DNA from: Candidatus Portnoybacteria bacterium RBG_19FT_COMBO_36_7
Lineage (GTDB): Bacteria; Patescibacteriota; Minisyncoccia; Portnoybacterales; GWB1-42-6
NCBI GenBank assembly: GCA_001819495.1
Contig: MHMW01000018.1
Location: 3,322 to 67,321, forward strand
Length of the DNA: 64,000 nt
Reading direction: 5' to 3'
Shown: piece by piece, positions 50,507-53,579 of the stretch
Position numbering within the stretch: position 1 is the stretch's first letter
Layout: each line of letters starts with the position of its first letter
Made by a program: the position numbers and the translations under genes
Notes under the pieces: model-generated
The model's database searches: none
Seen by the model: only the letters and a program-made list of their open reading frames with translations
Told to the model about the DNA's origin: nothing

Positions 50507-50880
50507 ATCCAAGCAAGCTGGGTAATTGCCCTGCACTTTTAATAAAGGTCCAGGGAGGAAAGTCCGAACTCCATCGTTCACTAAAAAGTGAAGGTAAAAA
50601 AGTAGCGGCTAACCGCCGTCCATCGTAAGATGCGAGGTGCGAACAGAGACGCCTGAAACCGAAAGGAATCGGGTATCCTTAATGGATAATTCTTAATGGC
50701 AACATTAAGACTGAAACGGCCAAATCCTTACTGGGAGCAAGATCAAACCTATGAGGCGACAAGCTTGATCTCATAGAGAAAAGTAGATCGCCAGAGCCCT
50801 TGAGCAATCAAAGGCCAAGACAGATAATTATCGCCCCGCAATTGCGGGGTACAGAATTCGGCTTATAGGCTTGCTTGGAT
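50507..50880 (+). ncRNA. rnpB: RNase P RNA (bacterial type A)
   Basis: The P1 helix CCAAGCAAGC/GCTTGCTTGG closes the molecule. Conserved GGAGGAAAGTCCGAACTCC and ACAGAATTCGGCTTATAG (P4 strands) are present. It has its own terminator. Confidence 0.85.
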
Positions 50881-50887
50881 AAATAAA

Positions 50888-50918
50888 AATCCGCTTCTAA
50901 AAAGCGGATTTTTATTTA
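50888..50918 (+). terminator. rho-independent terminator of rnpB
   Basis: Hairpin AATCCGCTTCTAAAAAGCGGATT is followed by TTTATTT. Confidence 0.75.
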
Positions 50919-50941
50919 TCTGAGTTATTGCCAAAACGTTA

Positions 50942-50974
50942 TAAAAAAGGGAAGTCATAAATATGACTTCCCTT
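50942..50974 (-). terminator. rho-independent terminator (minus strand)
   Basis: A 10-bp stem, AAGGGAAGTCATATTTATGACTTCCCTT, is followed by UUUUUUAU on the minus strand. Confidence 0.7.
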
Positions 50975-51354
50975 ACAAATTAACTGCCAGAGAACAAATG
51001 AACTAATAAGCAGTTTTGCGTCATGCTCGGGACAAAATACATGATCCGCAACACGAACAGTGGGTCGCGTGAGGAAATAACCAGCGCATCTTGCATCACC
51101 TCCTTTCTAGCCGGGGATGGAAATCTTTGTGCCATACTTCATTATAGCCTGTCAAAATTAAGGCTAATTGATATGTAGACATCAGGAACATGTTTTCCAC
51201 CCCCTCATTATTAAAGGGATGAGAGTGGATATCAGCTCTTCGTTGCAATATCTCAGCGTCCCAATCAAGGATTTTGAGTCCCCTGCTCTCACCTATAGAT
51301 CTGCCTTGATATCAATCTAGAAGATACACCCCTATCATCTCATCCCCGCCTTTC

Positions 51355-51825
51355 TTAAAACATTTTTTCCTGTTTTTTGTCCAGCGCCTCATTAACCAAT
51401 CTATCTGCTTCTTTGTTTTCTTCTCTGGAAATAGCTTTGAATTTGATTGTACCAAAATCCAGCATTAAGTTCCAGACTTTCAAAAACAACTTCTGGATGT
51501 TTGGCTCTTCGATTTTGTATTCGTGGTTAAGTTGATTGGCGACGAGCTCCGAATCAAGGCGAATTTCGATATTAGATTTTTTTGCCTCTTCTTTGCCAAA
51601 AAGCGCCTTAAATTTTTTGAGCGCAAAAATCACCGCCTGATATTCGGCTTCGTTATTGGTTGCCTCGCCAATGGCTTCGGAATATTTTTTTATCGGCTCG
51701 CTTGCCTCGCCGAAGCCCTCAGTAGCGGACGAAGGCGGGCCTTTTTCGTTAATAATAACTACTCCGATTGCTGAAGGCCCAGGGTTGCCCCTGGAACCAC
51801 CATCTGTGTAAATTATATGCTTCAT
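51355..51825 (-). CDS. rnhA: ribonuclease HI
   Basis: It has the RNase H type-1 motif YTDGGSRGNPGPSAIGVV and a catalytic TNNEAEYQA segment. Confidence 0.8.
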   Translation of the reverse strand: MKHIIYTDGGSRGNPGPSAIGVVIINEKGPPSSATEGFGEASEPIKKYSEAIGEATNNEAEYQAVIFALKKFKALFGKEEAKKSNIEIRLDSELVANQLNHEYKIEEPNIQKLFLKVWNLMLDFGTIKFKAISREENKEADRLVNEALDKKQEKMF

Positions 51826-53579
51826 AGTTTTTTTATATCAGTTATTTTTAACTGCAATTCCCTGCTCCCGTTCCATTCGTCTATTATCAACTCAAACACT
51901 ATATCAATTTTATCGCCGATTTTCAAATCCTGATTGCCATTTTTGGCTAATCTAAAACCAATAGCTTTGAATATTTTATTAGAAAGTTTATCGCTTTTTA
52001 ATTCTAATTTTAAATGCTGGGAACCGTTGCCAACCTGACGCAGATTAACAATTTCAAGCTGTTTTATTAAAAAATTCGGCCGCGGATTGGTTTCTCTGTC
52101 GTATGGTTCAAAACAGGCCATCTCGTCAAAAAATTCCCAGACGATATTTTCCGGCTCAATTTCGGCGTCTATTTCTATAAAAGGCACCAGATCTTCATCC
52201 TTTAATTTTTTTCTGGCAATCTGATTGATTTTTTCCTTAAAATCACCGAATTTATTATTTTTCAGCGCCAAACCGGCTGCGCCAGGATGACCGCCAAATT
52301 CTTTCATCAATTGGCCGCACTGCCCAATTGCTTCAATGATATTAAAACACGGAATACTGCGGGCTGAACCGCGAACTTCTCCTTCGTTTTCTTTAAAAAT
52401 AATGGTCGGCCGGTGATAACGGTCGCAAATTTTACCAGCCACCAAACCAATTACGCCCGGCGACCATTTTTTGTCGCTTTCAATAATGATAGGGTCTAAT
52501 TTATTTTCAATATTCGGTTTTATTCTCGTTTCAATTTCCCGAACTATTTCATCTGTTAATTTTTGGCGCAGTTTATTTTGATCATTTATTTTTTCTGCCA
52601 AAGACCTGGCTTCGTCTCTCGTCTTGGCTAACAAAAGCTCCATCGCCAAACTCGCATGCTTCATTCTTCCTGCCGCATTTAAGCGCGGCGCCAAAATAAA
52701 ACCGAGCGAATAAGTATCAAGGTTGGTCGTCATTGTGTCGGTTTCAAAAACGGGATTCAGTTTAGCGATTTTCATTAATTCCTGCAGGCCAATTCTTTTT
52801 GTTTGAGCAAGCACGATTAAACCATATTTTACCAAAGTCCGATTTTCACCAAGCAAAGGCACACAGTCGGCCACCGTGGCTATCGCCACCAAATCCAACA
52901 GCCATTTTTCCCAGCCTTCTGGAATTGACGATTTGCGATTTGTGATTTGCGATTTGCTAAGCAGTGCTTGCGCTAATTTAAATGCCACTCCGGCGCCGGC
53001 TAATTCCTTAAAAGGGTACCTGTCTTTTTTTTGCCAGGGATCAATAATGATTTTAGACGGAGGCATTTTTTTTCCAATCTGATGATGATCCACAACTATT
53101 ACCTCAACCCCCAGCAAATTGGCTAATTCAATTTCCTTTATATCAGAAATACCACAATCGACTGTCAAAATCAGCATGACTTTCTGTTCGGCTATTTTTT
53201 TAATTGCCTCGGTGTTTAATCCATAGCCTTCAATGATTCTGTCCGGAATATAGACCCCGCCGGATAAATCAGCGCCCAGTTCTTCCAAAATGCTTTTTAA
53301 AATTATTGCTCCGCAGACACCATCGGCATCGTAATCACCAAAAATCGCAATTTTTTCCTTTTTTTCAATTGCTTCATAAATTCTTTTAACCGCTTCTTTG
53401 ACTCCCAACATTAAAAAAGGATCGTGCAGATCCTCTCCATAATCCGGATTAAAAAATTCATCAATCACCTTTTGGGTCTTTAACCCCCGGTTATACAAAA
53501 GCTGTAAAATCAAAGGGCTGTATTCTGGAAATTTTTTAATGAATTCATCCGGCACTTTATCCTTGATCTTCCAAATCAT
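51822..53579 (-). CDS. recJ: single-stranded-DNA-specific exonuclease RecJ
   Basis: 585 aa with DHH (GDYDADGV, VVDHH) and DHHA1 (GGHPGAAG) motifs. It contains an in-frame heptamer repeat. Confidence 0.85.
   Translation of the reverse strand: MIWKIKDKVPDEFIKKFPEYSPLILQLLYNRGLKTQKVIDEFFNPDYGEDLHDPFLMLGVKEAVKRIYEAIEKKEKIAIFGDYDADGVCGAIILKSILEELGADLSGGVYIPDRIIEGYGLNTEAIKKIAEQKVMLILTVDCGISDIKEIELANLLGVEVIVVDHHQIGKKMPPSKIIIDPWQKKDRYPFKELAGAGVAFKLAQALLSKSQITNRKSSIPEGWEKWLLDLVAIATVADCVPLLGENRTLVKYGLIVLAQTKRIGLQELMKIAKLNPVFETDTMTTNLDTYSLGFILAPRLNAAGRMKHASLAMELLLAKTRDEARSLAEKINDQNKLRQKLTDEIVREIETRIKPNIENKLDPIIIESDKKWSPGVIGLVAGKICDRYHRPTIIFKENEGEVRGSARSIPCFNIIEAIGQCGQLMKEFGGHPGAAGLALKNNKFGDFKEKINQIARKKLKDEDLVPFIEIDAEIEPENIVWEFFDEMACFEPYDRETNPRPNFLIKQLEIVNLRQVGNGSQHLKLELKSDKLSNKIFKAIGFRLAKNGNQDLKIGDKIDIVFELIIDEWNGSRELQLKITDIKKL
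52930..52957 (-). repeat. 7-bp tandem repeat (GATTTGC/GATTTGT x4) inside recJ
   Basis: Four copies encode KSQITNRKSS in the recJ protein. Confidence 0.8.

Follow-up and report, generated by a model that had tools for sequence, protein, structure and literature searches.

What does the gap between rnhA and rnpB contain in a genome in which it is 473 nt long? The stretch of DNA analysed here, referred to as the window, comprises 64,000 nt of contig MHMW01000018.1 (positions 3,322 to 67,321, forward strand), and the RnhA protein encoded in it has a 100%-identical counterpart in Candidatus Portnoybacteria bacterium RBG_19FT_COMBO_36_7. Among 177 related loci, which were fetched via RnhA, rnpB lies next to rnhA in 115; here the gap has a median length of 85 nt and is shorter than 100 nt in 65 loci. 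The 473 nt in the window therefore represent an addition that is present in only part of the group. A first-pass annotation had described positions 50930 to 51354 as an uncharacterised region holding two micro open reading frames (ORFs), each preceded by a Shine-Dalgarno (SD) sequence. The best explanation is that the 3' third of this region (51108..50937, minus strand) is a self-contained micro-gene that makes a putative metal-binding micro-protein, and we assign this explanation a probability of roughly 0.55.

The gene proper is a 22-codon ORF followed by TGA (MRWLFPHATHCSCCGSCILSRA, 51089..51021, minus strand). Its ATG at 51089 and its end at 51021, as read in the first-pass annotation, were confirmed. 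Homologues of the module were found with a profile of the region, and eight distinct sequences were compared. They represent eight distinct lineages, seven with Portnoybacteria-type loci in which the module lies downstream of rnhA and one in which it lies elsewhere (locus L169). Beside the window and its 99%-identical strains (L001 and L002), the module is carried by L085 (identical in L177 and L178), L086 and L087, whose RnhA proteins are 72–73% identical to that of the window, and by L164, L170 and L171 (RnhA 79%, 77% and 76% identical, respectively). The SD sequence and the 22-codon ORF are both present in the syntenic relatives, which was one of the checks suggested when the region was first flagged.

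The family consensus of the peptide is MRWMFPHATHCSTCGSxxLP (20 aa). Its variation across the eight sequences can be written as MRW(M/L)F(P/S)HA(T/I)HCS(T/A/C)(C/A)G(S/C), followed by 4–6 variable residues. The peptide of the window strain, including its 99%-identical variant, reads MRWLFPHATHCS(C/A)CGSCILSRA. At the nucleotide level, the variable columns in codons 1–12 are distributed over codon positions 1, 2 and 3 as 3/1/10, and all codons able to vary synonymously do vary (e.g. Arg2 with CGC, CGA, CGG and AGA; Ser16 with TCA, TCG, AGC and AGT; Gly15 with all four codons). Summed pairwise Nei-Gojobori counts for codons 1–16 gave a proportion of synonymous differences (pS) of 0.78, which is saturated, and a proportion of non-synonymous differences (pN) of 0.11 (pN/pS 0.14); for codons 1–12 the ratio is 0.056. 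This frame is free of stop codons in all homologues. The shifted forward frames yielded pN/pS ratios of 1.7–1.9 and the three reverse frames ratios of 0.34–4.4, and the reverse frame with the ratio of 0.34 holds nine stop codons across the eight sequences. Changes at synonymous sites in one open frame, the pattern of protein-coding DNA, are thus what the alignment contains. The peptide of the 22-codon ORF is under strong purifying selection, which is the best-supported result of this study. Because selection acts on the amino-acid sequence, the 22-codon ORF must be translated. As judged from this pattern of substitutions, it is a genuine, unannotated, translated micro-protein gene.

A comparison of the window with L001 revealed an uneven distribution of differences, 6 of 14 falling within 42 nt of the micro-gene (51012–51053). 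Three adjacent substitutions turn codon 13, TGT in the window, into GCC in L001, a synonymous change affects codon 14 and two further changes lie in the loop behind the stop codon; none was found in rnhA, recJ or the spacer upstream. This cluster may reflect either a local hot spot or the exchange of an allele.

The ORF is preceded by an extended SD sequence (AGAAAGGAGGTGAT, 51108..51095, minus strand) with the core GGAGG at 51103..51099, and the distance from GGAGG to the ATG is 9 nt. The perfect SD announced for the minus strand is indeed present and is unique as well: it is the sole match of at least 9 nt to the complement of the anti-SD within the 64-kb window, and the chance expectation for the SD 11-mer is 0.04 occurrences. 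The 14-mer complements the canonical 3' end of 16S rRNA; the 16S gene of this organism lies outside the window. In all eight lineages (G)AAAGGAGGTGA is kept at a distance of 7–9 nt from the ATG. Two other interpretations of this element were ruled out. A fragment of 16S rRNA on the plus strand, as which the 14-mer may be mistaken, is contradicted by the absence of any small-subunit (SSU) rRNA match on either strand at E ≤ 10, and sequestration of the SD by CCUC of codon 6 by the loss of the complement in L171 and L169.

Downstream of the ORF, a Rho-independent terminator was identified (50974..50937, minus strand), which consists of a 12-bp stem (50974..50947) followed by a T-run, in agreement with the strong terminator noted in the first pass. 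A G+C-rich hairpin with a T-run occurs at the same place in every lineage, and the sequence of the stem differs each time. In L085–L087 and L169, the SD is preceded at a distance of approximately 25–40 nt by a sigma-70-type promoter, which has the form TTGATT-17-TATAAT in L085 and TTGACA-18-TAAAAT in L169; those of L086 and L087 were identified by eye in the alignment. Equipped with SD, promoter and terminator of its own in these loci, the micro-gene is thus predicted to form an independent transcript of about 160 nt.

Within the peptide, His7, His10, Cys11 and Gly15 are invariant in all eight sequences, and Cys14 is present in seven. The conserved residues would thus provide the four ligands of a putative CxxCG-type knuckle (His7, His10 and Cys11 in 8/8, Cys14 in 7/8). 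The description of the peptide as Cys-rich is overstated, as conservation among its cysteines is confined to Cys11 and Cys14; Cys13 and Cys17 of the window are strain-specific, and the 99%-identical strains L001 and L002 have Ala13. From these residues we infer that the product is a free micro-protein of about 20 residues, most likely a metal-binding one (H-x2-H-C-x2-C-G). The knuckle would bind a metal ion, most likely Zn2+, either alone or as the partner of a larger protein, and the long SD would provide heavy ribosome loading and might protect the short mRNA. The metal-binding peptide operon considered in the first pass survives in part only: the micro-ORF is conserved and its His/Cys pattern fits metal binding, and an operon of two ORFs is unsupported.

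Searches in protein and RNA libraries contributed little to this picture. NCBIfam family NF045510 ('4-Cys prefix') matched residues 7–18 below its threshold (16.9 bits vs. a cut-off of 24; E 0.006), and a profile search against PDB returned the zinc-binding HCSxC segment of DHHC20 (AHHCSACDSCIL) at E 0.2 only. Pfam, PHROGs and PADLOC gave no match to the peptide, a Pfam search with six ORFs of 22–51 residues in the region was likewise negative, and nothing was detected by tblastn against plasmids and phages or with a degenerate DNA pattern against viral contigs. A word search with four concatenated peptide variants against 5.8 billion protein clusters yielded one match, P0121, which is a spurious 98-residue call that contains the ORF (contig of L169). 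When P0121 was used as the query for HMMER against 1.84 billion representatives, only its spurious N-terminal part was matched, which is a dispersed repeat. A search of the literature with the peptide string found no paper that contains it. The Rfam check proposed earlier revealed no known RNA in the region, either at the gathering thresholds or at E ≤ 10: Rfam 15 produced nothing but terminator-like noise at 50878–51001 (≤ 36.5 bits vs. cut-offs of at least 40), nothing over 51000–51354 and, at E ≤ 1, nothing in the homologous parts of L164, L169, L170 and L171. No tRNA or tmRNA was reported by ARAGORN in the region. When the region was compared with the 64-kb window by blastn and tblastx, only the self-match was returned, and other small ORFs (sORFs) in longer rnhA-rnpB gaps of distant relatives are all unrelated to the micro-gene.

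Unannotated small proteins of up to 50 residues have been catalogued in GMSC (PMC11364881) and sORFdb (PMC11796252). The micro-gene resembles bacterial sORF proteins in being a stand-alone ORF with SD, promoter and terminator that is missed by gene callers; it differs from them in that 20 residues are at the extreme low end and no sequence relative occurs in the libraries searched. Many characterised bacterial small proteins have a membrane helix, whereas the micro-protein is devoid of one, and MRWMFPHATHCSTCGSPLLP is without the hydrophobic stretch of at least 18 residues that was looked for as a mark of type I toxins. Zinc-finger micro-proteins of the C(P)XCG type occur in haloarchaea, and several of them bind no zinc, according to PMC11241148. 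As described there and in PMC2253796, they share with the micro-protein the very small size and the CxxCG knuckle, of which HC-S-x-C-G is the putative counterpart here. In contrast to them, the micro-protein combines one CxxCG with two His residues in 20 residues and is bacterial.

Several observations weigh against the metal-binding micro-protein proposed here. Only 11 of the 177 rnhA loci examined carry the module, the lineages with it number eight in all, seven of them related Portnoybacteria, and the taxonomic placement of the eighth, L169, depends on one named homologue of a neighbouring gene. The product of L086 has 31 residues and carries Ala14, with a Cys at position 16, and L171 has Ser6. 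Twenty residues are very small for a folded metal site, and the matches to known families are not significant. Furthermore, the conservation of the RNA behind the stop codon, together with the mutually exclusive helices described below, hints at an additional or alternative role in cis.

TGA is found at codon 21 in six of the eight lineages, whereas the window and L086 have CGA at this position and run on for 2 and 10 codons, respectively. The end of the ORF lies in a small hairpin (51008..51028, minus strand), which has the form GAGC-13 nt-GCUU in the window and UGAGC-AAGGCGUAAAAnn-GCUCA in the relatives and which contains the UGA stop in six of the eight lineages. Behind the stop codon the nucleotide sequence of this block is kept, in contrast to the reading frame. 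A 1-nt indel separates the L085 type from the L086 type and shifts the frame, yet GCUCA is retained; the constraint on the block is therefore one on the RNA rather than on a coding sequence. In the eight sequences, 95% of the cells of the local 5-bp hairpin are paired. In an alternative helix, the 5' arm pairs with codons 10–12 (51062..51054) and CGU with codon 8 (96% paired). These two helices are mutually exclusive and show almost no covariation, so that their support consists of conservation. Folding predicted the long-range helix, and the local hairpin when the 3' part was folded alone. Incorporation of selenocysteine or another kind of UGA read-through was ruled out, because the TGA varies in position and the frame downstream of it is not conserved.

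The main rival explanation makes use of these helices. It proposes a nascent peptide acting in cis, as a leader or by ribosome arrest, whose residues in the exit tunnel and pause at the UGA would select one helix, either that of codons 8–12 with the stop region or that of the stop region with GCUCA, and thereby alter the fate of the RNA or read-through of the terminator. The very short ORF with its selected peptide sequence, a UGA stop in seven of the eight lineages (after Pro in four), the nucleotide conservation behind the stop and the pairing of 95–96% in two exclusive helices all fit this proposal, and arrest at a UGA stop codon has precedents in TnaC and PepNL (PMC8450073, PMC11890864). 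Together with SpeFL (bioRxiv 10.1101/604074), these arrest peptides resemble the micro-gene in having ORFs of 14–34 codons, a selected peptide, a UGA often after Pro and a strong SD. They precede a regulated gene, however, and need their C-terminal residues, whereas the last 4–6 residues of the micro-protein, which would be near the peptidyl-transferase centre, are variable, and the ORF is followed by a complete terminator and no conserved downstream gene. This terminator hairpin is self-contained and shares no sequence with the competing helices. The downstream neighbour varies as well (convergent rnpB, as in the window, L164 and L171; same-strand rnpB, transcribed from a promoter of its own; or a peptidase of the M20 type). 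In addition, CGA replaces UGA in the window and L086, and covariation is almost lacking in both helices. A cis-acting nascent peptide of this kind is judged unlikely. The same findings bear on the leader-peptide attenuator that had been listed among the first candidates and that now appears unlikely, as every lineage has a self-contained terminator and no downstream gene is common to them. For an attenuator of the trp/his type, a run of regulatory codons is missing, the two His and two conserved Cys codons being non-consecutive, and no regulated gene in the same orientation follows; in the window, L164 and L171 there is nothing downstream on that strand.

Somewhat less probable than a cis-acting peptide is that the transcript of about 160 nt is a dual-function small RNA. 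Its loop AAGGCGUAAAA and its extended SD would then have a trans-acting or protein-binding role, with the peptide as an additional product. The size of the unit, which has its own promoter and terminator, is that of a small RNA, the nucleotides past the stop are conserved although the frame is not kept, and the SD is far longer than translation requires. Opposed to this are the lack of any nameable target or partner and of an Rfam match and, above all, the fact that by far the strongest constraint is on the amino-acid sequence. A comparable extended SD is the STAB-SD, which has the sequence GAAAGGAGG. It acts as an mRNA stabiliser of cryIIIA in Bacillus thuringiensis (reviewed in PMC4113751 and PMC3997798). 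Both are perfect extended SD sequences near the 5' end of a transcript; unlike the STAB-SD, which no start codon follows, the SD of the micro-gene is predicted to be a working ribosome-binding site 9 nt before an ATG. A stabilising role of the SD of the micro-gene is a conjecture, and the systems compared here are the closest known ones, with the micro-gene as a candidate member at best.

A precursor of a ribosomally synthesised and post-translationally modified peptide (RiPP), in which a conserved leader at the N-terminus would precede a variable core at the C-terminus, is improbable. The 16 conserved N-terminal residues in front of 4–6 variable ones, the presence of Cys and Ser and the concentration of strain-level changes in codons 13–14 would agree with such a precursor; a core of 4–6 residues behind a 16-residue leader without a cleavage motif would be atypical, however, and no precursor family of NCBIfam or Pfam was matched. 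In the eight contexts the micro-gene is accompanied by pgk, recJ, rnhA, rnpB and a sugar transferase gene, or by genes for a helix-turn-helix (HTH) protein and an M20 peptidase, and none of them includes an adjacent gene for a maturation enzyme, protease or transporter, so that the RiPP operon suggested earlier finds no support. That the region is non-functional, whether an ORF and an SD that both arose by chance, the remnant of a gene or a fragment of the 16S 3' end on the plus strand, can practically be dismissed: it is an insertion relative to most relatives and matches no protein or RNA family, but its occurrence in eight lineages with saturated synonymous sites and a pN/pS of 0.14 already contradicts this, as do the conserved SD, terminator and promoter, the missing SSU match and the absence of anything similar in the window.

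The second ORF reported for the region, with 31 codons (MFLMSTYQ...RLERR, 51191..51096, minus strand), is judged not to be a gene. The stretch of about 100 nt in which it lies (approximately 51213..51121) is missing from L164, L170 and L171, the ORF does not occur in the promoter-type loci either, and no family in Pfam or NCBIfam was matched. Of the two SD-preceded micro-ORFs, the 22-codon gene is therefore conserved and the 31-codon ORF is lineage-specific. The overlap of its stop codon with the SD of the micro-gene, which had been taken as a sign of translational coupling, is an artefact: read in frame, the SD GAAAGGAGGTGA gives GAA AGG AGG TGA, i.e. ERR and a stop, so that the stop codon is the SD itself. 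The same SD string precedes the micro-gene ORF in L085, L164 and L171, all of which are without an upstream ORF. A coupled operon of both ORFs thus finds no support, since the syntenic relatives lack the 31-codon ORF.

How the micro-gene is transcribed in the loci without a promoter of the L085 type is a separate question. The window, L164, L170, L171 and the truncated contigs L166 and L167 have a structured spacer in place of the promoter. In the window it extends from the rnhA stop codon to the SD (51110..51354, minus strand), and a long-range stem closes it. The 5' arm of this stem, GGCGGGGAUG (51350..51341), begins 4–11 nt past the upstream stop codon, which is that of rnhA or, in L171, that of a 57-residue ORF. 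The 3' arm, CAUCCCCG (51119..51112, minus strand) or UCCCCGCC, ends 6–10 nt before the SD. For the four complete versions (window, L164, L170 and L171), the closing duplex has a free energy of −16 to −27 kcal/mol. The interior of 127–247 nt is poorly conserved (44% column identity); L170, L171 and L166 are of a type with GNRA-capped hairpins, and the window and L164 share other blocks. One compensatory pair was detected in the former type (AUGGC-GAGA-GCCAU vs. AUGAC-GAGA-GUCAU). Folding z-scores of the spacer range from −1.4 to −4.1 in comparison to mononucleotide shuffles, and those of the whole region in the window are −2.1 and −2.5 on the two strands. The unrecognised structured RNA among the initial candidates thus survives weakly, for 51354..51110, by virtue of the conserved closing stem, against which stand the unconserved interior and the lack of an Rfam match.

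A promoter scan from rnhA to the SD in the window found no sigma-70-type match except a weak one (9/12). Inside the window-specific insert, a perfect TTGACA and a perfect TATAAT are found 3 nt apart at 51142–51156 (minus strand), which the scan did not report. The two elements are too close to act as a pair, and the TATAAT, located 52 nt before the ATG, could serve the micro-gene as a −10 element. In the window lineage, one transcript probably covers rnhA, the spacer and the micro-gene. By its sequence features, 51354..51110 is most probably a structured spacer that varies between lineages and that would allow the micro-gene to be expressed from the rnhA transcript. Expression in the window, L164, L170 and L171 would depend on read-through transcription from rnhA, and the closing stem would bring the stop codon of the upstream gene, or the ribosome terminating there, next to the SD of the micro-gene. 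A miniature inverted-repeat transposable element (MITE) or a retron was ruled out as the origin of the stem-closed spacer, as no other copy exists in the window and a reverse transcriptase is found nearby in L164 only, where it is of the group II intron type.

The assemblies of L003, L166 and L167 break within the spacer, 61–192 nt past the rnhA stop codon. These three independent breaks would fit strain heterogeneity in the spacer. The 57-residue ORF of L171 (2957–3130), which lies between rnhA and the spacer, has a GTG start and the same kind of long SD (AAGGAGGTGAT); no NCBIfam family was matched by it.

The only locus in which the module is not located downstream of rnhA is L169 (Joint Genome Institute contig TB_LI09_3DRAFT_1047077, 1–1006). 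Here its neighbours are the genes for an excisionase-family HTH protein on one side and for an M20-type peptidase on the other. More than 100 clusters are 86–99% identical to the HTH protein, and the sole organism-named one among them stems from a Syntrophaceae metagenome-assembled genome (88%). The module probably also occurs outside the candidate phyla radiation (CPR), and the neighbouring gene suggests that it is present in Desulfobacterota or has moved horizontally. Upstream of the micro-gene promoter of L169, a stretch rich in inverted repeats was observed (400–560). The N-terminal part of P0121, which is a spurious translation of this stretch, has matches to 44 cluster representatives at E ≤ 0.001, one of them from Deltaproteobacteria bacterium RBG_19FT_COMBO_46_12; the stretch looks like a dispersed intergenic repeat element. 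On a bolder and tentative interpretation, which is possible at about half the confidence of the explanation preferred here, the peptide founds an undescribed micro-protein family of CPR and Desulfobacterota, the first 16 residues of which are identical across phyla. It would serve as a metal-binding module of minimal size (H2C2) or, together with the stop-codon hairpin, as a sensor of the nascent chain type, and the GGCGGGGAUG-closed spacer would represent a novel structured RNA by which expression of the micro-gene is coupled to the preceding gene.

The remaining features of the locus are conventional. The upstream gene of the micro-gene, rnhA (51355–51825, minus strand), encodes a protein of the RNase HI family (Pfam RNase_H/RVT_3) and overlaps recJ (51822–53579). 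The convergent neighbour is rnpB, the RNase P RNA of class A (50510–50881, plus strand; Rfam RNaseP_bact_a, 127.5 bits). Many Parcubacteria-type genomes keep rnhA and rnpB side by side, and rnpB is convergent with rnhA in 66 of the 115 loci and on the same strand in 49. A hairpin 3' of rnpB (AAATCCGCTTCTAAAAAGCGGATTT, 50889–50912), with A-runs and T-runs on both sides, is the terminator of rnpB itself; it could act bidirectionally and back up the terminator of the micro-gene. The G+C content of the flagged region (42.6%) is higher than that of nearby true spacers (26–29%), and in this sense the region is GC-richer as described; in comparison to the mean of the window (41.8%) it is equal.

The gap between rnhA and rnpB is a frequent site of small insertions, among which are the 57-residue ORF of L171, a gene for a CAP-domain protein (L172 and L084) and a sigma-70 gene (L168). 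In L164, a 265-residue reverse transcriptase of the group II intron type (1439–2236) overlaps the start of rnhA at the position that recJ occupies in the other relatives. It was matched by TIGR04416 with an E value of 1.5e-39 and a score under the cut-off, and it is probably truncated.

CPR genomes are small and streamlined, and the investment of a gene-sized unit in a peptide of 20 residues, including an SD unmatched in strength within 64 kb, a terminator of its own and, in some lineages, its own promoter as well, implies a real role in the cell. The micro-gene is invisible to standard gene callers, and its only trace in the databases is the spurious call of 98 residues. The comparative analysis of a single intergenic spot can thus recover conserved micro-proteins in uncultured lineages. 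As the module apparently also occurs next to a gene of Syntrophaceae type, one may ask whether micro-genes spread horizontally, and the 20-mer represents a concrete and cheap experimental target.

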